DNA of 58,443 nucleotides, taken from contig CAJTMZ010000007.1 in NCBI GenBank assembly GCA_910577445.1, positions 1 through 58,443 of the forward strand. The letters run 5' to 3'. The DNA comes from an uncultured Lachnospiraceae bacterium (GTDB lineage Bacteria; Bacillota; Clostridia; Lachnospirales; Lachnospiraceae). The notes beneath the pieces were generated by a model that saw only the letters and a program-made list of their open reading frames with translations, was not told where the DNA came from and did no database searches. Position 1 is the stretch's first letter; each line of letters begins with the position of its first letter. Made by a program: the position numbers and the translations under genes. Shown piece after piece: positions 7,314 to 20,899 of the stretch.

Positions 7314-9515
7314 GTGGCAGAGAAACACGGAAGCTTGTCTATTAACAGTGAAAACATATTCCCGATTATTAAGAAGTGGTTGTATTCGGACCATGATATC
7401 TTTTTCAGGGAATTGATTTCCAATGGCTGTGACGCCATCACCAAACTGAAAAAGCTGGATATGATGGGAGAGTATCCCTTACCGGAGGATTACAGGGGAA
7501 AAATTCAGGTTTTAGTCAACCCCGAGGAAAAGACGCTGAAGTTTATCGATAACGGTATCGGAATGACGGCGGACGAGGTGGAGGAATATATTAACCAGAT
7601 TGCTTTCTCCGGAGCAACGGATTTTATTGCAAAGTATAAGGATAAGACCAACGAGGACCAGATTATCGGCCATTTCGGACTGGGCTTTTACTCCGCTTTT
7701 ATGGTGGCGGACGAGGTGCATATCGACACCCTTTCCTGGCAGGAGGGCGCGGCCCCGGTACACTGGGAATGCGACGGCGGTACGGAATTTGACATGAAAG
7801 AGGGAGAACGCGCCGAGGTGGGAACCACCGTTACGCTTTTCCTGAACGAGGATGTACTGGAGTTTTGCAACGAATATAAGGCGAGAGAGGTTATTAAAAA
7901 ATACTGTTCTTTCATGCCGATAGAGATTTACCTTTCCAAGGAAAACACCACCGATACCCAGACCATTGACGCCGATGAAAAGCTGGAAACGGACACGGTT
8001 GTGGAGGAAATCAAGCCGGAGAAGGAAGAAGATAAGTTAAGATATAAAATTGTAAGGCGCCCCGAACTTTTGAACGAGACCAATCCGCTGTGGGCAAAGC
8101 ACCCCAATGAGTGCACCAAAGAGGAGTATCTTGAGTTTTACCGCAAGGTGTTCCAGGATTACAAGGAGCCTTTGTTCTGGATACATCTGAATATGGATTA
8201 TCCTTTCAACTTAAAGGGAATTTTGTACTTCCCCAAGATTAACATCGAGTATGAGTCCATCGAGGGTGTGATTAAGCTCTACAACAATCAGGTGTTTATC
8301 GCGGACAACATCAAGGAAGTGATTCCCGAGTTCCTGATGCTGCTTAAAGGTGTGATTGACTGTCCTGATTTGCCTCTTAACGTGTCCAGAAGCGCGCTGC
8401 AGAACGACGGTTTTGTAAAGAAGATTTCCGATTACATCACCAAGAAAGTGGCGGACAAGCTTTCCGGCATGTGCAAGACGGAAAAGGAAGAGTACGACAA
8501 ATACTGGGACGACATCAGTCCTTTCATTAAATTCGGCTGCTTAAAGGACGACAAGTTCTGTGAAAAGATGACGGACTACATTCTTTTCAAGAACCTGGAG
8601 GGCAAATATCTGACCCTTCCCGAATGCCTGGAAGTCAATAAGACTGACCCGGACGAGGCGGATGAAAAGGAAACCGCCGAAAAGACAGAAGGCGAAGAGA
8701 CGGCTGCCGACACGGAAGAAAACGCGGATAACGAAAGCGGTAAAGAGAATGCCGCAGAACAAGCGGATGGCGGAGCGGCGGATGACGAAAGCGAATCCGG
8801 GGATGTGGAAAAAGCATCCGGAGCCGACGTGGTTGACGCTGACGGCAACGTGATTGACGAAGAAGATGACGACGACGAGGAGTCCGGGGAAGAGGAGAAG
8901 AAAGAAAAGGTTATTTACTATGTAACCGACGAGAAACAGCAGAGCCAGTACATCAGCATGTTCAAGGCTGCCAAAATGGACGCCGTTATCCTCACCCACA
9001 ATATAGACCAGCCTTTTATTTCCCAGTTGGAGGCAAAAAATGAAGGCATTAAGTTCCAGAGAATCGATGCGGATTTGACGGATACCTTCAAGGCAAAGAC
9101 CAACAAAAAGACGGCAAAGGAATTAGAGGAAGCCGCCGAGGCCGTAAGCAAGGTGATGAAGAAAGTCCTGAAAAAGGATAAGATTACCATCAAGGTTGAA
9201 AAGCTGAAAAACAAGAAGATATCCTCCATGATAACCCTGTCCGAGGAGAGCAGGAGAATGCAGGATATGATGAAGATGTATTCCATGCCCGGTATGGGAA
9301 TGAACGATTTCGGAAAAGAGGGCGAGACGCTTATTTTAAACGCCAGCCATCCTCTCGTGAAATACATCATGGAGCATACGGAGGGCAGCAATGTCAATAT
9401 GATTTGCGAACAGCTCTACGATTTGGCCCTTTTGCAGCACGCGCCTCTTGAGCCGGAAGCCATGAGCAAGTTCGTGGCAAGAAGCAACGATATTATGATG
9501 CTGCTGACAAAGTAA
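7314..9515 (+). CDS. htpG: Molecular chaperone HtpG (Hsp90) with a long acidic insertion
   Basis: IFFRELISNGCDA, DNGIGMT, IGHFGLGFYSAFMVA and DLPLNVSRSALQ motifs; GTG start. Confidence 0.96.
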   Translation: MAEKHGSLSINSENIFPIIKKWLYSDHDIFFRELISNGCDAITKLKKLDMMGEYPLPEDYRGKIQVLVNPEEKTLKFIDNGIGMTADEVEEYINQIAFSGATDFIAKYKDKTNEDQIIGHFGLGFYSAFMVADEVHIDTLSWQEGAAPVHWECDGGTEFDMKEGERAEVGTTVTLFLNEDVLEFCNEYKAREVIKKYCSFMPIEIYLSKENTTDTQTIDADEKLETDTVVEEIKPEKEEDKLRYKIVRRPELLNETNPLWAKHPNECTKEEYLEFYRKVFQDYKEPLFWIHLNMDYPFNLKGILYFPKINIEYESIEGVIKLYNNQVFIADNIKEVIPEFLMLLKGVIDCPDLPLNVSRSALQNDGFVKKISDYITKKVADKLSGMCKTEKEEYDKYWDDISPFIKFGCLKDDKFCEKMTDYILFKNLEGKYLTLPECLEVNKTDPDEADEKETAEKTEGEETAADTEENADNESGKENAAEQADGGAADDESESGDVEKASGADVVDADGNVIDEEDDDDEESGEEEKKEKVIYYVTDEKQQSQYISMFKAAKMDAVILTHNIDQPFISQLEAKNEGIKFQRIDADLTDTFKAKTNKKTAKELEEAAEAVSKVMKKVLKKDKITIKVEKLKNKKISSMITLSEESRRMQDMMKMYSMPGMGMNDFGKEGETLILNASHPLVKYIMEHTEGSNVNMICEQLYDLALLQHAPLEPEAMSKFVARSNDIMMLLTK

Positions 9516-9531
9516 AGCGGCGAAAGCCTGT

Positions 9532-9560
9532 GACAGATTAAAAAATCTCTGCATAGTATA
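9532..9560 (+). promoter_or_regulatory. Putative sigK-type sporulation promoter of the sleC-like gene
   Basis: GACA (9532-9535), 16-bp spacer, CATAGTATA (9552-9560); matches the AC-N16/17-CATAnnnT consensus. Confidence 0.6.
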
Positions 9561-9588
9561 TGATAAGTATATATGCAGAGGTTTTTTT
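9541..9588 (+). terminator. Intrinsic terminator after htpG, overlapping the sleC promoter and RBS
   Basis: CTCTGCATA (9547-9555) / TATGCAGAG (9572-9580) stem followed by T7 immediately before the ATG at 9589. Confidence 0.7.
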
Positions 9589-10499
9589 ATGCCCAAAAAT
9601 AATTTACACAGCGCCCAGTCGGACGGCGGCTACACCGGTAAGCTGCAGATTGAGGTGACTTCCTCTCTTGGCCTGATTCCCGTAAAGGACGCTACCGTGA
9701 CGATTTCCTACACGGGCGTGCCTGATGTTACCATTGAAAAAATCACAACCGATTCCTCCGGACAGACGGAAAAAATCGATTTGCCGGCTCCGCCCCCCGA
9801 ATACAGCCTGACGCCGGTGGAACAGCAGCCTTATTCGGAATACAACGTGCAGGTGGAAGCGCCCGGCTATGAACCCGTGATGGTTTCGGGAACGGAGATT
9901 CTTCCCGGCGTTACGGCCATGCAGCCGATACGGATGACTCCCGTGGAGGCCACAAGAGAGCAGGAAGAGGTGATTACCATACCCGACCACACGCTTTACG
10001 GGGAATATCCGCCCAAAATACCGGAGGACGAGATTAAACCGGTGGACGAGAGCGGGGAAATTGTCTTAAGCCGCGTGGTTATTCCTGAATACGTGGTCGT
10101 TCACGACGGCGTTCCGGATGATTACACCGCCAGGAATTATTATGTAAGATACAGGGATTACATCAAAAACGTGGTTTCCTCGGAAATATACGCCACCTGG
10201 CCGGACAGTACAATCTATGCCAATACGCTGGTGATTATGTCATTTACCCTAAACCGGGTATATACGGAATGGTACCGGAACAAGGGCTATAATTTTACCA
10301 TAACCTCCTCCACCGCCTATGACCAGAAATGGATGCCGGGCAGAAATTATTATGAAAATATCGACAGGGTGGTGGACAGCGTGTTTGCCAATTACCTCTC
10401 CCGCCCGGGGGTGCGGCAGCCCATCTTTACCGCCTACTGCGACGGACGGCGGGTGAGCTGCGACGGCTTAAGCCAGTGGGGCTCTAAATATCTCGGGGA
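9589..10499 (+). CDS. sleC: 5' part of an interrupted spore cortex-lytic enzyme gene (SleC-like, SpoIID/LytB catalytic domain). As integrated, the ORF runs into the element and stops at 10536
   Basis: VVIPEYVVVHDG, YIKNVVSSEIYATWP, SFTLNRVYTEWYRNKGY and YCDG...LSQWGSKYLG match clostridial SleC; similarity ends abruptly at the GGGGA repeat. Confidence 0.88.
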
Positions 10500-10522
10500 T
10501 GGCTGTGACATAATAGGACTAA
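10495..10522 (+). repeat. attL: GGGGA core (10495-10499) plus element arm ending GGACTAA (10516-10522)
   Basis: Direct repeat with 18718-18722; arm is the inverted complement of TTAGTCC at 18698-18704. Confidence 0.85.
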
Positions 10523-10592
10523 TGGCCGCTTTTTGAGCGTAAATTTGTTAAGAGAAAAATAAACGGCAAGAGCTGAAAGAAGGGGAGGAAAA

Positions 10593-12179
10593 ATGGAGCC
10601 GGCGGAGAATGATAAAAGATGGCATACATGCGGTTACGTGCGTTTATCCTGCGAGGACGGCGACGGGCGGGAGAGCAACAGCGTCACAGGACAGAAGAAC
10701 CTGATTCGGGATTACATAAGCCGACGCCCGGAGTTTATAGAGTGCGGCATGAAAGTGGACGACGGTTTTTCGGGTTCCGATTTTGAAAGACCTGCTTTCC
10801 GTGAGATGATGGAGGAGGTAAAAGCCGGAAAGATTAACTGTATCGTGGTGAAAGACCTGTCCCGCTTTGGCAGAAACTATCTGGACGCCGGGGAATACAT
10901 AGAGAGGATATTTCCTTTTCTCGGCGTGCGGTTCATTGCCGTCAACGACAATTACGACAGCCTGAACGACAGAGGGGAGATGGAGAGTTTCCTGATTCCC
11001 TTTAAAAACCTAATCAACGATGCGTACTGCCGGGATATTTCCGTGAAAATAAAAAGCCAGCTTGCCGTCAAACGAAAGAGGGGAGACTTTGTGGGGGCCT
11101 TTGCGGTTTACGGCTACAAAAAGGATTCGGATAATAAAAACCGCCTGGTAAGGGACGATTTTGCCGCCGGGGTAGTGCGGGATATTTTTCGCCTGAAGCT
11201 GGAAGGCGTCAGCGCCGGAGACATTGCGGACCGGTTAAACGAAGAGGGCGTGCTCTCTCCCATGGCCTATAAAAAGGCGGAGGGGCTGCGGTATGCCACG
11301 CCGTTTTCACCGGACGGGGAAGGCTTGTGGACTGCTTCCGCGGTTTTGCGGATACTGAAAAATCCGGTCTACACGGGGGTTCTTGCGCAGGGGAAAACCA
11401 CCGCGGTCAGTTTCAGGGTAAAGCGGCGTGTGGAAAAACCCGGCGCGGAATGGGACGTGGCAAAAAACGCCCATGAAGCCGTCATAAGCGGGGAGGATTT
11501 TGAGGTTGTACAAAAGCTTCTCGCAAGGGATACCCGCACCAGTCCCGGCGGAAAAAAAACGGAGCTTTTTTCCGGCATGGTTTTCTGCGGGGAGTGCGGC
11601 GGTCCCATGGTGAGGAAAACGGTTCCGGCGAAAAACAGGAAATATGTTTATTATGTCTGCGGAACCCATAAAAACGAAAAAACCTGCTTTTCCCACAGTA
11701 TACCTGCGGGCGCTTTGGCGGACATCGTCCTTTTCTCTTTGCAGGGGCAGATACGGATGCAGGGCTTTCGGGATAAGGGCAGCCCGGCCGGCCTTGCAGT
11801 GGAAGCGGCCTGGCAAAAAAACGGCGAAAACAGGCTAAAGGCGCATTTGGAGAGAAGGCAGGCGGAAGCGGAAAAGTGCCGGCTGGTTCTGGACTCCCTT
11901 TCCGTGAACCTTGCGAAAGGGGTGATTGACAGGGCGGAATATGAGGAACTTAAAAAAGGCTTTCGGATAAAGCTGTTGGCGGCGGAGCATAAGATAAGCG
12001 AAATCCGGGAGAAGATGGGCCGGGCCGCAAAGGAGGATAAAGGCGTCATAAGGCGGTGGGAGCAGTTTGAAAAGTATGGGAATGTGACAAAGCTCGACAG
12101 GGCCATGACGGCGTTTATGATAGACGGAATTTTTATCCGAAGGAATAAAAGAGTGGAGATTGTTTATAACTGGCGATAG
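10593..12179 (+). CDS. Large serine recombinase 1 (full length: resolvase, recombinase, Zn ribbon, coiled coil)
   Basis: YVRLS catalytic motif, DDGFSGSDFERP, VKDLSRFGRNY, CGECG...YYVC...C. Confidence 0.93.
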   Translation: MEPAENDKRWHTCGYVRLSCEDGDGRESNSVTGQKNLIRDYISRRPEFIECGMKVDDGFSGSDFERPAFREMMEEVKAGKINCIVVKDLSRFGRNYLDAGEYIERIFPFLGVRFIAVNDNYDSLNDRGEMESFLIPFKNLINDAYCRDISVKIKSQLAVKRKRGDFVGAFAVYGYKKDSDNKNRLVRDDFAAGVVRDIFRLKLEGVSAGDIADRLNEEGVLSPMAYKKAEGLRYATPFSPDGEGLWTASAVLRILKNPVYTGVLAQGKTTAVSFRVKRRVEKPGAEWDVAKNAHEAVISGEDFEVVQKLLARDTRTSPGGKKTELFSGMVFCGECGGPMVRKTVPAKNRKYVYYVCGTHKNEKTCFSHSIPAGALADIVLFSLQGQIRMQGFRDKGSPAGLAVEAAWQKNGENRLKAHLERRQAEAEKCRLVLDSLSVNLAKGVIDRAEYEELKKGFRIKLLAAEHKISEIREKMGRAAKEDKGVIRRWEQFEKYGNVTKLDRAMTAFMIDGIFIRRNKRVEIVYNWR

Positions 12180-12339
12180 GAAGGCGGTATTTATGACGTT
12201 TTCATATGACAATAGTTATGAAAAATTCTGGACGGCAAAGCCTGTAAAATGATAAAATAGAAAATACAGGAAAAACGCGCGCAAGCAGTGCGGACGCGCA
12301 AAACACACGCGCGGATATGGGGAAAAGGAGGAATTTGAA

Positions 12340-13905
12340 ATGGTGAATACGTTTCGCTATGACGACGTGCCGGTGCTTGAAACAACCGGCGGAAAACTGA
12401 AAGGGTATTTTTATAACGGGGAATACATTTTTAAGGGCGTTCCCTATGCGGAGGCGGACAGGTTCCAGATGCCCAGAGAGGCAAAATGGGAGGGTGTGAA
12501 GGAGGCATGCTCCTACGGTTTCGTCTGCCCTCTTATGGAAGTGGATACGCCGGGGGCGGAGCTGATGGTGCCGCACCGCTACTGGCCTCAGGACGAGCAC
12601 TGCCAGAGCCTGAACATCTGGACCAAAGAGATTGGCGGCGGGAAAAAAATGCCTGTTATGGTATGGCTCCACGGGGGCGGGTACTTTGCCGGTTCCTCCA
12701 TAGAACAGGCGGCTTACGACGGGTTTAATATGTGCATGAACGGCGACGTGGTGGTGGTTTCCATCAATCACCGTCTGAATATTTTAGGCTACCTTGACCT
12801 GTCACCGTTTGGCAGTAAATATAAAAACTCGGGCAATGCGGGACACGCGGATATGGTTGCCGCGCTGAAGTGGGTGCATGACAACATCGCCCTGTTTGGC
12901 GGCGACCCTGACAACGTAACGATTTTCGGGCAGTCAGGCGGCGGCATGAAGGTTGCGGATTTAATGCAGATTGAGGAGGCGGACGGTCTTTTCCACAAAG
13001 GGCTGATTATGAGCGGAGTAGGCGACGACACCCTTTTACCTTCCTGTACGGGAGACGGCAGGGAGATTGTCACGGAATTATTGAAAGAGCTTGGCATTTC
13101 AGAGGACGAGGTGGAAAAGCTGGAGACCATTCCCTATTATGAGCTTGTAAAGGCGTACAAAAAGGTAAGTCCGGCGATTGCGGCAAAGGGAGGCTATATC
13201 GGTGGAAATCCTCTGGCCAATGAGTATTACAGGGGAAATCCCATCGGCTATGGATTCAGGGACCATGCTTTTGACATTCCTCTGATGGTGGGAAGCGTAT
13301 TCGGGGAGTTTTCCTTCAAAGCGGCTTCCTACGATAAAAATAAACTGACTGAGGAACAGTTAAAGGAAGTGATATCCGCCGTGTACGGGGAACACACGGA
13401 CGAAATAACGGAGGTATTCAAGGAAGCTTATCCCGGAAAGAGCCCGGCAGATTTGCTTTTGGTTGACCGTGTGATGCGTCAGCCCTCAAAGCAGCTTGCC
13501 AGAATGCACGCCGAGGGGAAAAAGGCGGCGGTTTACCTGTATGATTTTACGCTGGAATTTCCGATATACCACAATAAAATCGCATGGCACTGCTCGGATA
13601 TCCCCTTCTTTTTCCATAATACGGAGCTGGTAGAGGTATGTCAGATTCCCGAGGTGAGAGAGAGACTGGAAAAACAGATGTTCGAAGCTTTTATGGCTTT
13701 TGCAAGGACAGGAAAGCCGGAATGTGAAAATCTGCCCAAGTGGGAAGCGGTGACGCCAGAGGTAGAGCCGACTATGATTTTCGACAGAGAATGCGAGCTG
13801 AGATATAATTTTGACGATAAACTGTACGAAAAGATTGACAGTTTTCTCCCGCCCTTTAATTTTATGGAAATGATGGCAAGCGGGGACGAGAAGATACAGC
13901 ATTAA
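12340..13905 (+). CDS. Type-B carboxylesterase (element cargo)
   Basis: FKGVPYA, PVMVWLHGGG, FGGDPDNVTIFGQSGGG nucleophile elbow, AWHCSDIPFFF. Confidence 0.92.
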   Translation: MVNTFRYDDVPVLETTGGKLKGYFYNGEYIFKGVPYAEADRFQMPREAKWEGVKEACSYGFVCPLMEVDTPGAELMVPHRYWPQDEHCQSLNIWTKEIGGGKKMPVMVWLHGGGYFAGSSIEQAAYDGFNMCMNGDVVVVSINHRLNILGYLDLSPFGSKYKNSGNAGHADMVAALKWVHDNIALFGGDPDNVTIFGQSGGGMKVADLMQIEEADGLFHKGLIMSGVGDDTLLPSCTGDGREIVTELLKELGISEDEVEKLETIPYYELVKAYKKVSPAIAAKGGYIGGNPLANEYYRGNPIGYGFRDHAFDIPLMVGSVFGEFSFKAASYDKNKLTEEQLKEVISAVYGEHTDEITEVFKEAYPGKSPADLLLVDRVMRQPSKQLARMHAEGKKAAVYLYDFTLEFPIYHNKIAWHCSDIPFFFHNTELVEVCQIPEVRERLEKQMFEAFMAFARTGKPECENLPKWEAVTPEVEPTMIFDRECELRYNFDDKLYEKIDSFLPPFNFMEMMASGDEKIQH

Positions 13906-13998
13906 AAACGAAATTATTTTACCAAAGTCTAAAATCAGGCAATACCATTTTGAATGAAGAAAGTAAAATGTGAAAAAGCAACAGAAACGGGGGAAAAT

Positions 13999-16299
13999 AT
14001 GGAAAGAGACATCAAAAAAATAATTTCCGAAATGACACTGGAGGAAAAAGCCGGTATGTGTTCCGGCGAGGATTTCTGGCGCCTGAAACAGGTGGAACGT
14101 CTTGGTATCCCGGCGGTAATGGTATCCGACGGACCGCACGGACTGCGCAAGCAGCCGGAAAACGCCGACCATCTCGGAATCGGGGAAAGCATTGTGGCGG
14201 TCTGCTTCCCGGCAGCCTGCGCCACGGCTTCCAGCTTTGATACGGAACTGATGAACGAGATGGGAAAAATACTGGGAGAGGAGTGTCAGGCGGAGGACTT
14301 AAGCGTGCTCCTGGGACCGGCGGTCAATATCAAGAGAAGCCCTCTGTGTGGCCGTAACTTCGAGTATTTGTCTGAGGACCCGTATCTCGCGGGAAAAATG
14401 GCCGCCGCCTACATTAAGGGTGTGCAGAGCTGGGACGTGGGAACCAGTATGAAGCACTATGCGGCAAACAATCAGGAATATAACCGTATGAGCTGCTCTT
14501 CCAACCTGTCGGAGCGGACTTTCCGGGAGATTTATCTTCCCGCTTTTGAGACGGCGGTAAAGGAAGCGCAGCCTAAGACAATTATGTGCAGCTACAACAA
14601 AATCAATGGAACCTATGCTTCCGAGAACCACCACCTTCTGACAAAAATCTTAAGGGACGAGTGGGGGTTTGAAGGCTATGTGATGACCGACTGGGGCGCT
14701 GTGGCGGACCGCGTGAAGGGAATCAGGGCGGGACTTGATTTGGAGATGCCCGGCAGCGGCGGCTTCAACGACGCCAAAATTGTTGCGGCAGTGAAGGACG
14801 GAAGCCTTGACGAGGCCCTGCTGGACAAGGCGGTGGAGAATATTTTAAAGGTGGTATTTTCCTATGCGGACAATCGTCGTCCGGAAGCCGTGTTCGACAG
14901 GGACGTCGACCATGAGAAAGCGGTAAATATCGAGACGGAGTGCGCGGTCCTTCTGGAAAACAACGGCGTGCTTCCCTTAAAAGGGGATAAAAAAGTGGTA
15001 TACATCGGCGAATATGCCGAAAAACCCCGCTATCAGGGCGGCGGTTCCAGCCATATCAACGCCAGTAAGGTAACCTCGGCTTTAGAGAGCGCAAAGGAAA
15101 AAGGCAGAACCGTATCCTACCTAAAGGGATTCCCGGCCGATAAAGACGAGGAGAACGAGGCGGAGCTTTCGGCAGCGGTTTCGGCGGCGCGGGAAGCGGA
15201 TGTGGCAATAATTTTTGCGGGGCTTCCGGACGTGATTGAGTCCGAGGGATATGACCGGAAAGATATGAAGCTTCCGGCATGTCAGAACAAGCTGATTGAG
15301 GAAGTTCTGAAGGTACAGAAAAACACGGTTGTGGTACTGCATAACGGAAGCCCGGTGGAAGCGCCCTGGGCGGACGACGCGGCGGCGGTTCTGGAAATGT
15401 ACCTGGGAGGCCAGGGCGTAGGCGAGGCTGCGGACCGTCTCCTTTACGGCGAGGCAAACCCCTGCGGGCGTCTAGCGGAAACATTCCCCTTCCATCTGGA
15501 AGATAATCCCAGCTATCTGAATTTCCCCGGCGACGGAAGAGTCGTGGACTACGCGGAGGGCGTTTACGTGGGCTACCGCTATTATGACACGAAAAAAATG
15601 CCGGTACGCTGGGCTTTCGGGCACGGACTGTCCTACACTTCATTTTCGTACGGCAATCTGCAGATGCCGGAGGAAACGCTGGGAGATACGGGCAGCGTAA
15701 AGGTATCTGTGGACGTGACAAATACCGGCGCTGTGGCGGGCAAAGAGGTGGTGCAGCTTTATGTCAGCGACAAAAACGGTACGTCGGGAAGACCGGTAAA
15801 AGAGCTGAAAGGTTTTGCCAAGACAGCGCTTGCGCCGGGTGAGACAAAGACGGTGGAATTTACCTTAAACGCAAGGGATTTGTCTTTTTACCATGAAGGA
15901 CTTGGCGACTGGTATGCGCCCTCGGGAACCTATGAGATTCTGATAGGGCACGCCAGCGACGAGATTTCCCTGAAAGGCGAGCTCTCCTTCAGGACCGGAA
16001 AACAGCTTCCTCTTCATGTGAGCGGCTCCACGACTGTGGGAGAACTTTTAGCGCATCCCGTAACCGCTCCGATTGTGGGAGAGATGATGAAGGCAATGCA
16101 GGCGAAGATGGCGGGCATGATGGGCGACGGCGCTGAGGAAGCCGCAAATGCCCTTGGCACAGGCGCGGAGATGATGGAGGCAATGGTGATGGGAATGCCG
16201 CTGAAATCCCTGGCAAGTTTCGCAGGCGCGGAGCTGGCGGCGCAGATTGAGCAGATGATGCAATCTTTGAATCAGGCGCTTGGCAATGTGCAAAAATAA
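13999..16299 (+). CDS. GH3 beta-glucosidase/glycosidase with Fn3-like domain (element cargo)
   Basis: SDGPHGLRK, GRNFEYLSEDP, KHYAANNQE, VMTDWG nucleophile, ESEGYDR, GKEVVQLYV; likely start at 13999. Confidence 0.93.
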   Translation: MERDIKKIISEMTLEEKAGMCSGEDFWRLKQVERLGIPAVMVSDGPHGLRKQPENADHLGIGESIVAVCFPAACATASSFDTELMNEMGKILGEECQAEDLSVLLGPAVNIKRSPLCGRNFEYLSEDPYLAGKMAAAYIKGVQSWDVGTSMKHYAANNQEYNRMSCSSNLSERTFREIYLPAFETAVKEAQPKTIMCSYNKINGTYASENHHLLTKILRDEWGFEGYVMTDWGAVADRVKGIRAGLDLEMPGSGGFNDAKIVAAVKDGSLDEALLDKAVENILKVVFSYADNRRPEAVFDRDVDHEKAVNIETECAVLLENNGVLPLKGDKKVVYIGEYAEKPRYQGGGSSHINASKVTSALESAKEKGRTVSYLKGFPADKDEENEAELSAAVSAAREADVAIIFAGLPDVIESEGYDRKDMKLPACQNKLIEEVLKVQKNTVVVLHNGSPVEAPWADDAAAVLEMYLGGQGVGEAADRLLYGEANPCGRLAETFPFHLEDNPSYLNFPGDGRVVDYAEGVYVGYRYYDTKKMPVRWAFGHGLSYTSFSYGNLQMPEETLGDTGSVKVSVDVTNTGAVAGKEVVQLYVSDKNGTSGRPVKELKGFAKTALAPGETKTVEFTLNARDLSFYHEGLGDWYAPSGTYEILIGHASDEISLKGELSFRTGKQLPLHVSGSTTVGELLAHPVTAPIVGEMMKAMQAKMAGMMGDGAEEAANALGTGAEMMEAMVMGMPLKSLASFAGAELAAQIEQMMQSLNQALGNVQK

Positions 16300-16364
16300 T
16301 ATAAAATGGTGGAATCCCAAAAGTTTGCGGCGGCTTCTGTCGTCAAAAAACAGAGGAGAAAACG

Positions 16365-16394
16365 GAATAATGACATGCCTCCGGCTCATAAGGT
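16365..16394 (+). promoter_or_regulatory. Putative sigE-type sporulation promoter for recombinases 2 and 3
   Basis: GAATAAT (16365-16371), 15-bp spacer, CATAAGGT (16387-16394). Confidence 0.45.
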
Positions 16395-16412
16395 GAGCCG
16401 GAGGTGTTTTTT
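16375..16412 (+). terminator. Intrinsic terminator after GH3 that sequesters the RBS of recombinase 2
   Basis: Perfect 11-bp stem CCTCCGGCTCA (16378-16388) / TGAGCCGGAGG (16394-16404), then T6 directly before the ATG at 16413. Confidence 0.8.
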
Positions 16413-17399
16413 ATGGCAAGAACGAAACGGAAAGTCAATCCCTTATCCCCGGCCCCTGAAAAACAGAAGGAGCAAAGAATTTACCGTGCCGGAGGCTATG
16501 CGCGCCTTTCGGTGGAAGACGGCGGGAGAGCGGGGGCGGACACGCTTCAAAATCAGGAGGAATTGATTTTTCAATATATAAAAGCGCAGCCGGACATGGC
16601 GTTTGCGGGAATGTACAGCGACAACGGACAAAGCGGTACGGATTTTCGCCGTCCCGGGTTTGAACGACTTCTGAGCGATGCAAAAAGTGGGAAGATTGAC
16701 TGTATTGTGGTAAAAGATTTGTCCCGCTTTGGCAGGAATTATCTGGAAACCGGAAATTATCTGGAAAGGCTGTTTCCGCTTTTGGGCGTGCGCTTTGTGG
16801 CGGTTGCAGAGGGCTTCGATTCCCTGACGGCGGGCGGGGACGAGGGGGACTGTCTCATTCCCCTGAAAAATATGATGAACGAATTTTACAGCCGGGATAT
16901 TTCCCGGAAAATCGGCTCCGCACTTGCCCTCAGACAAAAAAGGGGCGAGTTTATCGGAACATGGGCGCCCTATGGCTACAGGAAACGCGCAGACAATCCC
17001 CGCCGCATTGAACCCGACCCTGAAACTTCGCAGGTGGTCCGGGAGATATTTGACCGGTGCCTTTTGGGAGCGCCGTACCGGCAGATAGCGGAAAACCTGA
17101 ACCGGCAGAATATTCCGTCGCCCGCTAAGTACCATTACCTGAAAGGGGAAGCAAAAGCGGCACGCTATGAAAATGCCGTTTGGAAACCGCCAATCATAAA
17201 GCGGATTCTTTCCGGCGAGGTTTATCTGGGACATATGGTACAGGGATGTAAAAGGAAGTCTTTTTACGAGGGGAAGGGACAGAGGCGGGTTCCGAGGCAG
17301 GAATGGATTATTGTACGCAATACCCATGAGGCAATCATTCCCAACGACCTGTTTGAAAAGGTGCAGAAAATCATGGAAGAAAAGCGCCAATACCGGTAA
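16413..17399 (+). CDS. Serine recombinase 2, C-terminally short (no Zn ribbon or coiled coil)
   Basis: MARTKRK start after GGAGGTG; YARLS, DNGQSGTDFRRP, VKDLSRFGRNY; ends just after THEAII...FEKVQ. Confidence 0.88.
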   Translation: MARTKRKVNPLSPAPEKQKEQRIYRAGGYARLSVEDGGRAGADTLQNQEELIFQYIKAQPDMAFAGMYSDNGQSGTDFRRPGFERLLSDAKSGKIDCIVVKDLSRFGRNYLETGNYLERLFPLLGVRFVAVAEGFDSLTAGGDEGDCLIPLKNMMNEFYSRDISRKIGSALALRQKRGEFIGTWAPYGYRKRADNPRRIEPDPETSQVVREIFDRCLLGAPYRQIAENLNRQNIPSPAKYHYLKGEAKAARYENAVWKPPIIKRILSGEVYLGHMVQGCKRKSFYEGKGQRRVPRQEWIIVRNTHEAIIPNDLFEKVQKIMEEKRQYR

Positions 17400-17444
17400 C
17401 TCGCCGCATAAAATGCTCTAAGAGATTTACACAAGGACGGTTAA

Positions 17445-18701
17445 ATGAAGATTGCAATGTATCTGCGCCTTTCCGAAGAAGACAGGGATATGGCAAAAAG
17501 CAAAAAAAAGGAATCGGACAGCATCAGCAGCCAGCGGAATCTGATTTTGGATTTTATCGGCCGGAATGTGGAGCTGCAAAAGGCGGAAATTCTGGAATTT
17601 AGCGACGACGGGTTCAGTGGGAAAAATTTTGAGCGTCCCGGGATTGAGAGAATGCTCCGGATGGCGAAGCAGGGGGATATTCAGTGCATTGTGGTAAAGG
17701 ATTTATCCCGGTTTGGCAGGGACTACCTGACAGCGGGGAACTATATTTCCCGTATCTTCCCGTTTATGGGAGTGCGTTTTATTTCCGTAAACGACGGCTT
17801 CGACAGCGCCTGTAGGCAGGATACGGAAAGTCTGGATGCGGCCTTTAAAATGCTGCTGCACGACCTTTACAGCCGGGATTTGTCCCGTAAGGTGCGAAGC
17901 GCCCAGTATTTGAGAGCAGAGCGGGGGGAGTTTCTCTCCTCTTTCGCCCCTTTCGGGTATGTGAGAGATGAAAAGGACAGAAAAAAACTGGCGGTTGATA
18001 CTGCGGCGGCGGAAATTGTGCGCCGTATTTTCCGTCTGGCCCTTGACGGCGTCGGCACGGCGCGGATTGCCGGAATCTTAAACAGGGAGGAAGTCCCAAC
18101 GCCGATGGCTTATAAGCGGGCGGCGGGATGTACCCGTAAGCGCTGGGGCCGGTCCGGGGAGACCAATTTCTGGACCCCCGGTACGGTGGGCAGGATTCTG
18201 CGGGACGAGCGCTATATTGGCAGTAGTATCTATGGAAAGAAAAGGCGGGAAAGGACGGGGGACAGCCGGGAAAAGGAGGTTCCGAAAGAGGAATGGATTG
18301 TTGTGGAAAATACCCACGAGGGGCTTGTGACGAAGGAAGCGTTTGACGCGGTACAAAAGAAAATCCAAAGAACGGCAAGGCGGCCGGGCGGAAATTCTGG
18401 GATTTGCGCGCACGCGGGCCGAAATTCGGAAAAGGACCGGTGCGGCATATGGGAAGAGGCTGGCCGGATACGGGAGGAAAAGAACCGTCCGCAGGGTACA
18501 GATTCCCCGGATAATGGGAAAAGGGCGGTGAGATTAAAGAAAAGTTTAAGAGATGCGGAAAGCAGGCTGCAGGCTCTCTACGGGCAGTTCGTTCTGGGAG
18601 AGATTACAAAAAAAGAGTATCTTGCGGGAAAGGAGGCCGTCCTTAGAAAAAAAGAGGTTCTCACCCGGCAGCTTGCGGAATGGACGAATCTTGTTATTTA
18701 G
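17445..18701 (+). CDS. Serine recombinase 3 (Zn ribbon absent or degenerate); stop codon lies inside the attR arm
   Basis: YLRLS, DDGFSGKNFERP, VKDLSRFGRDY; no CxxC after THEGLV...FDAVQ; remnant coiled coil LYGQFVLGEITKKEY. Confidence 0.88.
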   Translation: MKIAMYLRLSEEDRDMAKSKKKESDSISSQRNLILDFIGRNVELQKAEILEFSDDGFSGKNFERPGIERMLRMAKQGDIQCIVVKDLSRFGRDYLTAGNYISRIFPFMGVRFISVNDGFDSACRQDTESLDAAFKMLLHDLYSRDLSRKVRSAQYLRAERGEFLSSFAPFGYVRDEKDRKKLAVDTAAAEIVRRIFRLALDGVGTARIAGILNREEVPTPMAYKRAAGCTRKRWGRSGETNFWTPGTVGRILRDERYIGSSIYGKKRRERTGDSREKEVPKEEWIVVENTHEGLVTKEAFDAVQKKIQRTARRPGGNSGICAHAGRNSEKDRCGIWEEAGRIREEKNRPQGTDSPDNGKRAVRLKKSLRDAESRLQALYGQFVLGEITKKEYLAGKEAVLRKKEVLTRQLAEWTNLVI

Positions 18702-18722
18702 TCCCTGTATGGCAGCAGGGGA
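18698..18722 (+). repeat. attR: element arm TTAGTCC...TATG plus GGGGA core (18718-18722)
   Basis: Direct repeat with 10495-10499; inverted symmetry with 10500-10522. Confidence 0.85.
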
Positions 18723-19080
18723 AGAGGGCTATGCCGCCATTGATATTATCCGTTACTATTACGGCAGCGACATGTACATCAACACGGCCACCAGTATTTC
18801 GGGAGTCCCCTCGTCCTGGCCCGGCTATGATTTGACGATTGGCTCATCGGGAGAAAAGGTGAGGCAGATGCAGCAGCAGTTAAACCGGATTGCCAGAAAT
18901 TATCCCGCCATTCCGACGATAACGGCGGACGGTATTTTCGGACCGGCCACGGCAAACGCGGTGAAGGCTTTCCAGAGGATTTTCAATCTGCCTGCCAACG
19001 GAATCGTGGATTTTCCCACCTGGTACAGCATTTCCAACATTTATGTGGGGGTCAGCAGGATTTCCGAGCCGGGAACTTAA
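18723..19080 (+). CDS. sleC: 3' part of the interrupted sleC-like gene (end of catalytic domain plus peptidoglycan-binding domain)
   Basis: EGYAAIDIIRYYYG, then LTIGSSGEKVRQMQQQL...ADGIFGPATANAVKAFQRIFNL...GIVDFPTW (PG_binding_1 pattern); same frame as 9589. Confidence 0.88.
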
Positions 19081-19237
19081 AAATAATTAATGACACAAAG
19101 CCGTCCATTCGCTATAATGAAGAATAAACAGATTGTTTGAAAAATACAAAAGATAGCTTTTCTGTGAAGCAAGGGTCTTTTGTGGTCTATGCACCGGGGG
19201 ATATGGGTGCAAAAATGCTTTAGAACGGAGGATTCCC

Positions 19238-20899
19238 ATGAAAAAAAAGAATAAGATAATGCTTACAGTGATGGCGGCGGCAATCGGAGTGCTGGCGGCA
19301 GTCGGCGGCAGAGACAGCGCTCTTTATGCGGAGGCGGCGGGGCGGCCGGTATCCATTGATTCCTGCCTGATTTCGGACGAGGACGTGGTATGTGAAATCA
19401 GTACGTCCAGCGTTCCGTCAAGCGACGACGGAAAGTTTTACGTCTATGCGGACGACGTGCAGCTTGACGGAACCACAGGAAGCATTGTCGCTAAGGTGGA
19501 CGCGGGAAAAAGCGTTTCCGCAAGCTTTCCGCTGAATTATAACACGGCGGATTCCAACTTAAGCCGCAAGTTTTTGGTCGCGGTGAAGAGAAACGGGGAG
19601 ATGGTGCAGGTAAGCGACGAGCATTATATCACCAACCCGGAAGCCATCGCCGCCTACTCTTCCACAAGAATGGACGGTGCCATCAAAGGGCTTTTGCCGG
19701 ATATCTCAAAGGTTACCGGCGAGGAGCTTAATGAGCTTGGGATTCACCAGATGGTTTATAACATGGATATCGACGATATCTGTTCGGACGAGTCGGTTCC
19801 CGGAACCATTGCCTTTCCCTATAACGGCCAGACCTGGTATTTTAACGGGGAGCGGCTTGCGGAATACGATTCCACCATCAGTACGTTAAATAAATACGGA
19901 ATCCAAATCACTATGGTTCTCTTAAACGGGGGACAAAATCCTTACGCCCAGGATTTAATCCATCCTCTGGCAGCAGACGGGGAGAACTGCCCCGGCTATG
20001 CGCTGAATGTGGAGGAGGAAGCCGGAGTCAACCACTTAAAGGCGATAGGCGCTTTTCTGGGGCAGCATTATTCGGGACAGACCGGCTGCGGACAGGTGGA
20101 CAACTGGATTATCGGAAACGAAGTGAACGCCCGCACCTCATGGTGGTATACCAATTCCACTTCCATGGATTTGAATGTCAATATTTATGTGAAGGCATTC
20201 CGCATCCTTTATAATGAAATGAAGAGTATGAACGCCAGCGTAAGAATATATAATTCCATCGACCAGGAGTGGAACCGCAAGTCCAATCCCGGAAGCTTTC
20301 TGGCAAAGGAGTATCTGGACCAGTTTAACTACTATATGAACAGGGAAGGGAATATTGACTGGGGACTTTCCTACCATCCTTACAATTCGCCCCTCTATGA
20401 CCCTTATGCCTGGAACGGGCCGGCGGTATGGGTGAAGGACAGCATCACCACGCCTTACATCACCATGCAGAATATTGATATTTTAATCGACTATATGCAT
20501 CAGGACAAGTTTTTAAATCCGGCGGGCGAGGTGAGAAGCATTTCCCTTGCGGAAATCGGCTATACTTCCGCTTTCGGGGACGAAAAGCAGGAAGCGTCAA
20601 TTGCCTATGGTTATCTGAAAGCGGCTTCCCTTCCTGATGTGGATGCCTTTATGCTGTTCCGTCAGACCGACGAAGCCTTTGAGATGGAAAGCCATCTGGC
20701 CCTTGGGCTGTACGATTTGGAGGGCAACAAAAAGCCTTCCTATGAAATGTATAAGAAGCTGGGGACGGAAAACGAAGCCGAGGCGAAGGCGCGGGCTTCG
20801 GAAATCATTGGCATGGACATTGATGAAATGATTCGCGATAACATCGTGTGGACGAGGGAAGGCAACGGCGTCGTAGCGGCTGTGGCCCCTGAGGAATAA
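19238..20899 (+). CDS. Secreted glycoside-hydrolase-like protein (DUF5722-like)
   Basis: Signal peptide; NWIIGNEVN and ISLAEIGY resemble clan GH-A acid/base and nucleophile motifs; LSYHPY. Confidence 0.7.
   Translation: MKKKNKIMLTVMAAAIGVLAAVGGRDSALYAEAAGRPVSIDSCLISDEDVVCEISTSSVPSSDDGKFYVYADDVQLDGTTGSIVAKVDAGKSVSASFPLNYNTADSNLSRKFLVAVKRNGEMVQVSDEHYITNPEAIAAYSSTRMDGAIKGLLPDISKVTGEELNELGIHQMVYNMDIDDICSDESVPGTIAFPYNGQTWYFNGERLAEYDSTISTLNKYGIQITMVLLNGGQNPYAQDLIHPLAADGENCPGYALNVEEEAGVNHLKAIGAFLGQHYSGQTGCGQVDNWIIGNEVNARTSWWYTNSTSMDLNVNIYVKAFRILYNEMKSMNASVRIYNSIDQEWNRKSNPGSFLAKEYLDQFNYYMNREGNIDWGLSYHPYNSPLYDPYAWNGPAVWVKDSITTPYITMQNIDILIDYMHQDKFLNPAGEVRSISLAEIGYTSAFGDEKQEASIAYGYLKAASLPDVDAFMLFRQTDEAFEMESHLALGLYDLEGNKKPSYEMYKKLGTENEAEAKARASEIIGMDIDEMIRDNIVWTREGNGVVAAVAPEE

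Follow-up and report, generated by a model that had tools for sequence, protein, structure and literature searches.

A sleC gene divided by an integrated element

The stretch of DNA analysed here, hereafter the window, comprises 58,443 nucleotides (nt) of contig CAJTMZ010000007.1 from an uncultured Lachnospiraceae bacterium (GenBank assembly GCA_910577445.1). It harbors the gene sleC, whose product opens the spore cortex at germination, in two pieces that are separated by an insert of 8,223 bp flanked by a 5-bp GGGGA repeat (Table 1). Open reading frames (ORFs) and Pfam matches describe this insert as an element of five co-oriented genes, i.e., the serine recombinase gene rec1, a carboxylesterase, a GH3 glycosidase, and two further recombinase genes, rec2 and rec3. 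The ORF at 9589-10536 encodes 315 amino acids (aa), of which 303 are SleC-like residues followed by 12 element-derived codons, and the remaining 119 residues begin at 18723 in a frame extending from 18553 to 19080. The split point lies between codons 303 and 304 (KYLG/EEGY), the crossover comprising codon 303 (GGG) and the first two bases of codon 304. A sequence-only reading of the window, made by a model without database searches, had described two sleC halves 8.2 kb apart in the same frame with a break at SQWGSKYLG, and had predicted that deletion of 10500-18722 would leave a 1,269-bp ORF of 422 aa. The ORFs, the coordinates, and an alignment with six intact orthologs (420-422 aa) agree with this description: the segments add up to 911 + 358 = 1269 nt (422 codons and a stop), the two pieces abut at SQWGSKYLG/EEGY with no residue lost or gained, and the joined protein is collinear with intact SleC, with nothing missing.

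Pfam places a weak SpoIID match in the 5' part of the gene and PG_binding_1 in the 3' part, and the rejoined protein matches the solved pre-pro-SleC from end to end (E 3e-125; PDB 9h68 aligned over residues 15-418). It has the N-terminal pre-pro region, SpoIID-like catalytic region, and C-terminal PG_binding_1 domain of the SleC architecture as given in a bioRxiv preprint (10.1101/2022.02.25.481979). Judged by its sequence, the interrupted gene is a true sleC. No second sleC ortholog was found in the host genome, where the sole other SleC relative is a 612-aa paralog (identity 39%, or 43% with the protein P0001 as query) that carries extra PG_binding_1 and LysM domains and is present too in congeners with an intact sleC; three Hydrolase_2 (SleB/CwlJ-type) genes are also encoded. 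The genome contains a SpoIVA match above the curated cut-off, and the host is therefore a spore former. The sigK family model matches contig C2 (11407-11901) over profile positions 62-226 only, with 226.7 bits, below its cut-off and within a 219-aa open frame, which probably reflects a divergent N-terminus and not a split sigK.

Table 1 Features of the divided sleC locus and of the element inside it (window coordinates)
Feature	Position	Strand	Remarks
Sigma-K-like promoter motif	9530..9560	+	AC at 9532-9533, N17, CATAGTATA at 9552-9560; 30 bases upstream of the sleC start codon
Strong hairpin upstream of sleC	9540..9587	+	A-run before, U-run after; encloses the -10 motif and the sleC ribosome-binding site GCAGAGG
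sleC 5' segment	9589..10499	+	Codons 1-303 and two bases of codon 304; ORF as integrated continues to the stop at 10536
Left crossover core (attL)	10495..10499	+	GGGGA; RNA joint with 5 letters fitting either side
Element-side attL arm	10500..10522	+	Ends GGACTAA; conserved in four species
rec1, full-length large serine recombinase	10593..12179	+	528 aa; Resolvase, Recombinase, Zn_ribbon_recom (Pfam)
Cargo carboxylesterase	12340..13905	+	521 aa; COesterase (Pfam)
Cargo GH3 beta-glycosidase	13954..16299	+	781 aa (Pfam)
Terminator-like hairpin after GH3	16375..16407	+	15-bp stem; 3' arm has GGAGG, 8 nt before the likely rec2 start (ATG 16413)
rec2, short serine recombinase	16404..17399	+	331 aa; Resolvase and Recombinase, no zinc ribbon (Pfam)
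rec3, serine recombinase	17445..18701	+	418 aa; no detectable zinc ribbon (Pfam); stop inside the attR arm
Element-side attR arm	18695..18717	+	Begins TTAGTCC, inverted repeat of the attL arm end; conserved in four species
Right crossover core (attR)	18718..18722	+	GGGGA; RNA joint
sleC 3' segment	18723..19080	+	Last base of codon 304 to stop; end of catalytic region and PG_binding_1 (ORFs, Pfam, alignment)

The joined message in metatranscriptomes

The window was found in mouse-gut metagenomes of several studies, all runs consisting of contigs and not of raw reads. Two metatranscriptome runs (X15 and X16) hold the exact joint that the sequence-only reading had predicted: one contig in each passes from 10494 to 18718, skipping 8223 bases, with five ambiguous letters. 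The X15 contig (1027 nt, depth 41) is made up of 852 nt from the left side with 8 differences from the window and 175 nt from the right side with 1 difference. A sleC message without interruption, its junction exactly as predicted, is thus present in a nearly identical strain, and a joint as exact as this means that the split arrangement is not due to chance. The seven listed variants of the RNA strain in the 5' part of sleC could not be linked to the element, as an element-bearing metagenome contig of the same species (L149) has the letters of the window at all seven. Both RNA runs also cover the esterase and GH3 genes at 0.6-1.7% differences, the identity of the esterase being ~98.5-99.4%; their depth is 0 over rec1 from 10770 on, and over rec2 and rec3 it is 0 or <1 in X15 and 0 except for 1.25 in one bin in X16. 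The two DNA runs compared, X4 and X10, bridge attL (X4 also attR) and contain the integrated form only. In X10, record 8 opens at 18723 with the first base past the core and so hints only weakly, if at all, at a graph branch.

Attachment sites, relatives, and selection

An element of the same family occupies the same sleC site in three congeners (G019, G366, and G375), whose sleC is broken at the same codon as that of the window with ~23 bp of element-side arm kept at each junction, and the DNA just inside these arms differs completely among the four carrier species. The attL arm together with the last two core bases (25 nt) occurs once per genome in 4 of the 68 genomes of the genus, always at sleC; the locus L063 carries the same site. 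Joined to each other, the two arms would make up a site of ~48 bp whose ends are inverted repeats and whose centre is the GA of the shared core. Such a centre is expected for large serine recombinases, which cross over at 2 bp. A search of metagenome contigs with the attL arm alone gave four, all of them in the integrated form at sleC, and the predicted junction on an excised circle (attP; degenerate 33-nt pattern) had no match in metagenome contigs, which carries no weight either way.

The sleC tree unites the four carriers in a single clade, and their elements have a common order of rec1, cargo, rec2 (326-333 aa in all three seen), and rec3, with a cargo that varies (SDR, AraC, GH3, EamA, TauE, ThuA). 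Element and host flank display the same branching order, and, measured by synonymous divergence (dS, Table 2), the element has diverged about as much as the host; the exception is rec3, whose dS in the two deeper pairs is close to saturation. Such similar divergence fits one ancestral insertion that was vertically inherited.

Table 2 Synonymous divergence (dS) of element genes, host flanking genes, and sleC
Pair	Element genes	Host flank	sleC
Window-G366	rec1 0.97, rec2 0.95, GH3 0.96, rec3 2.18 (near saturation)	htpG 0.69, downstream gene 0.49	0.72
Window-G375	rec1 1.53, rec2 1.78, rec3 not computable	htpG 1.30, downstream gene 1.50	0.92
G366-G019	rec3 0.27 (ORF includes fused sleC 3' part)	htpG 0.20, downstream gene 0.25	0.26

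The ratio of nonsynonymous to synonymous divergence (dN/dS) of split sleC is 0.020-0.049 (6 pairs), compared with a median of 0.042 among intact copies (64 pairs), and that of rec1-3 is 0.10-0.27. By this measure split sleC is under purifying selection as strong as that on intact copies, and the three recombinases are under purifying selection as well. The sequence-only claim that both halves are free of stops and frameshifts extends to the relatives: none was seen inside sleC in the 13 split copies examined, a single stop (L042, codon 229) lying in the junction overlap. A long-dead gene would not show dN/dS values of 0.02-0.05 over such divergence, and precise rejoining is the simplest way for the gene to function. 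Another intact sleC combined with relaxed selection on the halves, the situation that the sequence-only reading had named as contrary to it, was not encountered, there being no second ortholog and a dN/dS of 0.02-0.05.

Several further observations concern the junctions of relatives. In G366 (L058 1006-2649, minus strand, 547 aa with PG_binding_1) and G019 (L044 1498-2853, minus strand), rec3 lacks a stop codon and its ORF runs in frame across attR into the 3' part of sleC, just as the 5' part of sleC in G366 runs in frame into an SDR gene (L058 11685-13532, minus strand, 615 aa). Both fusions are probably incidental, being absent from the window and G375. A metagenome contig (L150, 1-1559) holds a near-identical element (rec1 99.4% over 180 aa) with ~200 nt of identical sleC flank, beyond which its sleC 5' region is only ~60% identical to that of the window; this could result from horizontal transfer that took flanking DNA along or from an assembly chimera formed across the conserved region. 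The best match in a collection of 5.8 billion proteins (P0002, 421 aa, from an ENA assembly) was considered as an empty site of the same species and rejected, as it is identical to the 5' part of G019 for 304 residues and has a divergent 3' part. The switch falls exactly at the att site, and, from its sequence, P0002 may be either a hybrid gene or an assembly chimera.

Gene content of the element and its three recombinases

The rec1 gene starts 57 nt past the stop of the truncated sleC ORF and 93 nt past the attL core; it marks the left end of the element, rec2 and rec3 the right, with the esterase and GH3 genes between them (the same order in G366 and G375). Orthologs of rec1 are 69% identical in G366 and 63% in G375 (dN/dS 0.15-0.22). 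The short form of rec2 recurs in G366 (333 aa, 76% identity) and G375 (326 aa, 68%; dN/dS 0.13-0.20), and because it is conserved in these two relatives rec2 is not a decayed gene. The orthologs of rec3 (dN/dS 0.10-0.27) are without a zinc ribbon in G019 and G366 and reach 666 aa with a zinc ribbon in G375, and the GH3 copy in the G366 element is 87% identical (dN/dS 0.086). An in-frame insertion of 42 nt in rec1, relative to window position 10761, is seen in L149.

The sequence-only reading had noted an insert devoid of phage, replication, and conjugation genes, and Pfam bears this out: none of these types was found among the five ORFs, which comprise three recombinases, COesterase, and GH3. 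No family was found in an Rfam scan of 9000-19600, and the element had no match in a plasmid collection. When a phage collection was searched with rec1, the best matches were faecal scaffolds deposited in GenBank as 'UNVERIFIED Bacteriophage sp.' (L169 and L170, human; ≤43% identity to rec1), L170 with three recombinases in tandem and L169 with two and a partial third at the scaffold end. These linear fragments lack terminal repeats and are uninformative.

The three recombinases are mutually 40-45% identical. Elsewhere in the same genome, contig C22 (9361-14175; L004, L008, L005) encodes a contiguous triplet of full-length serine recombinases of 598, 581, and 507 aa. A quick tree groups rec1 with the first of these, C22_A (support 97), and rec2 with C22_B (support 85); the fork between rec3 and C22_C is not resolved, and by identity rec3 is nearest to C22_C (44%). 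All of these triplet recombinases are separate in the tree from the single recombinases of other sleC inserts.

A sigma-K-like promoter motif and a hairpin upstream of sleC

A motif consisting of AC, 16-17 nt, and CATAnnnTA is kept upstream of all orthologs compared, i.e., the window and 29 loci with intact or split sleC, and the sequence further upstream differs among these 30 loci. The motif fits the sigma-K consensus, which is given as AC at -35 with a -10 shared with sigma-E, and sleC of C. difficile is described as transcribed from a mapped sigma-K promoter (PMC3789822). We infer that sleC is expressed in the mother cell of this organism. Inside the element, the -10 motif has two matches on the plus strand, both within recombinase genes, and its 24 occurrences window-wide versus 18 expected are not significant.

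The -10 motif lies within a hairpin whose arms are conserved in most of the 30 upstream sequences; the fold of 9530-9600 has a free energy of -21.8 kcal/mol (z -5.9), and 0 of 200 shuffles were as good. Transcripts entering from htpG would terminate here or have their ribosome site masked, and those started internally would lack the 5' arm. The hairpin between GH3 and rec2 has the same layout, with a ribosome site in the terminator arm.

sleC as a wider insertion hot spot

Of the 68 genomes of the genus (the window's included), 43 have an intact and 25 a split sleC, broken at codon 303/304 in four, near residue 172 in three, near 232 in 15, and at both 172 and 232 in three. For the doubly split genes, all three pieces were found in G035 (L061 and another contig) and G381 (L062), and the outer two only in G028. 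For the family, one genome per genus was searched, 301 in all, and sleC matched in 200; re-searching 43 of these, picked for at least two matches or a weak best score, showed at least 25 of the 200 to be split, 14 with both parts on one contig 2.5-60 kb apart and 11 with the parts on different contigs. Most of these splits are at a fourth site, codons 294/295, between W-M/L-T and Q-W-G. In other families of the order, three split genes were seen among five partial-match genomes that were re-searched (24 sampled), one with a 3.6-kb insert on a single contig (G053) and two with the parts on two contigs (G050 and G060). In a genome of another genus (G279), sleC pieces 2-234, 227-293, and 251-419 lie on three contigs.

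All 19 inserts fetched from sites other than 303/304 encode a large serine recombinase (a partial match in one case), and the smallest, ~2.7 kb in the complete chromosome of G208 (L047 1378-4105), is essentially one 489-aa serine recombinase. At site 232 the recombinases track SleC identity in seven of eight genomes, and that of L040 is unrelated (34-36%); these identities suggest old residents together with at least one independent arrival. The insertion sites (~172, 232, 294, and 303) all precede PG_binding_1 (346-405); they lie inside the conserved SpoIID-like region or adjoin it, and none falls on a Pfam domain boundary.

Proposed excision during sporulation and its alternatives

Given the joined message, the selection on both halves, and the long co-residence of element and host, we consider it likely that the insert is a long-resident element of the skin/gin kind that is excised during sporulation, with sleC being rebuilt. 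The 8,223-bp insert in the sleC coding sequence is an integrative element, resident and neither of phage nor of conjugative type; its recombinases would join attL and attR during sporulation, releasing a circle and restoring the 422-aa sleC, which would be transcribed late in the mother cell from the sigma-K-type promoter; the forespore chromosome would retain the element and ensure its vertical inheritance. Transcription from the sleC promoter could continue into rec1, past no more than a weak hairpin, and so act as a timer in the window, and excision itself would disconnect rec1 from that promoter. The short rec2 or the zinc-ribbon-less rec3 may act as directionality factor, or the trio may be bidirectional. 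We infer that the joined RNA stems from element-bearing cells and that excision is confined to the mother cell. Every part of the sequence-only interpretation that can be tested in silico was supported.

A number of points weigh against this interpretation. With 8 mismatches to the window over 852 positions, the joined RNA contig comes from another strain, which could simply lack the element, and both X15 and X16 are from one single study. No DNA-level product of excision, whether the empty chromosomal site (attB) or attP, is seen in the contigs of X4 and X10, a lack that is uninformative because contigs drop rare variants. The three Hydrolase_2 genes and the SleC paralog make the requirement for the split sleC uncertain. 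The dS of the element is somewhat higher than that of sleC itself. Only in the window does rec1 directly follow the 5' part of sleC, an SDR gene lying between in G019 and G366, and in G375 more than 9 kb after the 5' part contain no rec1. Finally, no small ORF that could be a directionality factor is common to the three fully seen elements (window, G366, and G375), which share only rec1-3, such factors being small and diverse, so that one may have escaped notice.

The last point would also suit a stochastic or growth-phase switch, as for yin in yabG, in which excision and reintegration without mother-cell control would create subpopulations with and without a functional sleC. Neither a sporulation-specific promoter nor a directionality factor was identified inside the element, triplet serine-integrase modules are described from ordinary mobile elements (PMC4701971), yin is reported to be excised at all time points (PMC10747680), and the gene tree has intact sleC genes dispersed among lineages with split ones, a pattern consistent with occasional excision in the germ line. 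However, co-divergence with the host over a dS of ~1.3-1.5 implies very stable retention in the germ line, the att arm is single-copy and confined to sleC, and the DNA contigs of both runs show nothing but the integrated form; we regard such a switch as unlikely. It is still less probable that an ordinary insertion inactivated sleC, leaving a young pseudogene in two halves while the 612-aa paralog and the three Hydrolase_2 enzymes serve germination. These other candidate lytic enzymes do exist and no direct excision product is present in DNA, but a pseudogene is hard to reconcile with the low dN/dS across four species that share the insertion, with 13 split copies free of stops and frameshifts inside sleC, with a conserved promoter and conserved att arms, with a paralog that also accompanies intact sleC in congeners, and with the exact joined sequence in RNA libraries. 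As for the two halves being translated separately, their products combining into an active enzyme with no DNA rearrangement, an ATG three codons before the junction in the attR arm of the window would permit it; yet that ATG is missing from the attR arms of G019, G366, and G375, none of the four insertion sites coincides with a Pfam domain boundary, and the 3' piece has no conserved ribosome-binding site, all of which makes this arrangement highly improbable.

Comparison with known intervening elements

Excision as the means by which sleC would be restored has precedents in other sporulation genes, the targets named in the sources consulted being sigK, spsM, spoVFB, spoVR, gerE, yabG, and spoVK. 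Our literature search found no report of a sleC-intervening element, although the supplementary tables of the cited papers might list further targets; the element in sleC is apparently unreported, while the same excision trick is known elsewhere. Like skin (sigK; B. subtilis, C. difficile), SPbeta/spsM, vfbin/spoVFB, and vrin/spoVR, it interrupts the coding sequence of a sporulation gene that is expressed (here presumably) in the mother cell. It also shares with skin-type elements a serine recombinase gene at the edge beside the junction, an ORF that deletion between the repeats restores and precise excision would rebuild, and retention in the germ line. The gene content of skin is described as variable apart from the recombinase (bioRxiv 10.1101/2022.02.25.481979; PMC4191935). 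The element in the window differs from the skin type in its target, a germination enzyme and not a regulator, coat, dipicolinic acid, or polysaccharide gene, in lacking phage genes, in having three recombinases instead of one with no directionality factor found, and in its host, a gut Lachnospiraceae.

Another counterpart is gin, a non-phage intervening element of 28.6 kb with girA, girB, and girC in gerE of Bacillus cereus ATCC 10987 (PMC5595907), which the sequence-only reading had correctly described as a non-prophage element with three recombinases. Both elements combine three serine recombinase genes with a target expressed at the sigma-K stage. According to that account, GirC and the small factor GirX suffice for gin, girAB form a separate operon that is not expressed, and the three recombinases are 22-26% identical (PMC5595907). 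In contrast, the element of the window measures 8.2 kb, lies in sleC, and encodes recombinases that form one conserved paralogous set (40-45%), all under purifying selection; whereas those of gin are unrelated in origin, this trio matches the contiguous C22 triplet one-to-one (rec3 by identity only). Triplet serine-integrase modules are described from conjugative elements of Firmicutes and streptococci, with position-wise clustering, some members without a zinc ribbon, and site-specific integration within genes, flanked by repeats of 2-8 bp (Ambroset et al. 2016, PMC4701971). The window element resembles them in its co-oriented paralogs, its 5-bp repeat, its C22 gene order, and its zinc ribbons, present in one member and absent from two. 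It differs from them in having no conjugation module, in the cargo between its first and second recombinase genes, which breaks the contiguity of the triplet, in a target that is a sporulation gene, and in a host gene that stays under selection.

More distant parallels exist in CcrA/CcrB of SCCmec, likewise a multi-subunit large-serine-recombinase system, though of two genes and not three and with a different host and target; rec1-3 match the CcrA, CcrB, and CcrC NCBIfam models below threshold (61-85 bits versus cut-offs of 700-900). CcrAB both excises and integrates. The fdxN element of cyanobacterial heterocysts with its recombinase XisF is another case of developmentally timed serine-recombinase excision that rebuilds a gene in a terminally differentiated cell, from a different phylum and developmental programme, and rec1 scores 97.6 bits against the XisF model, below the 375-bit cut-off. 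The parallel between sporulation and heterocyst excision has been drawn before (PMC6957869).

Implications for germination in gut commensals

Developmental gene rebuilding by excision is known mostly in Bacillus and a few pathogenic clostridia, whereas the host family here consists of abundant gut commensals whose spread between hosts depends on spores, and the interrupted gene encodes the very enzyme that opens the spore cortex. The comparative support is unusually good and the distribution surprisingly wide. With more doubt than conviction, we venture that in Lachnospiraceae and related families a whole guild of serine-recombinase elements could have sleC as its principal landing site (four crossover sites in ~400 bp, up to two elements per gene, about one third of the species of one genus), so that the germination competence of many gut commensals would be rebuilt by excision in each sporulation, the element of the window doing so with a three-subunit recombinase that dispenses with a separate directionality factor and is timed by sigma-K read-through of its own target. 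The triplet recombinase and the conserved 48-bp site also offer a compact candidate for the study of multi-subunit serine recombinases.

Gene callers label split genes as truncated 'peptidoglycan-binding proteins', and genome surveys may therefore wrongly score the loss of a germination gene, which gives practical weight to the frequency of splits, at 25 of 68 genomes for the genus and no fewer than 25 among the 200 sleC-holding genomes that represent genera of the family. If excision is required, the element makes itself indispensable to its host, as SleC would be missing from any spore in whose mother cell excision had failed.

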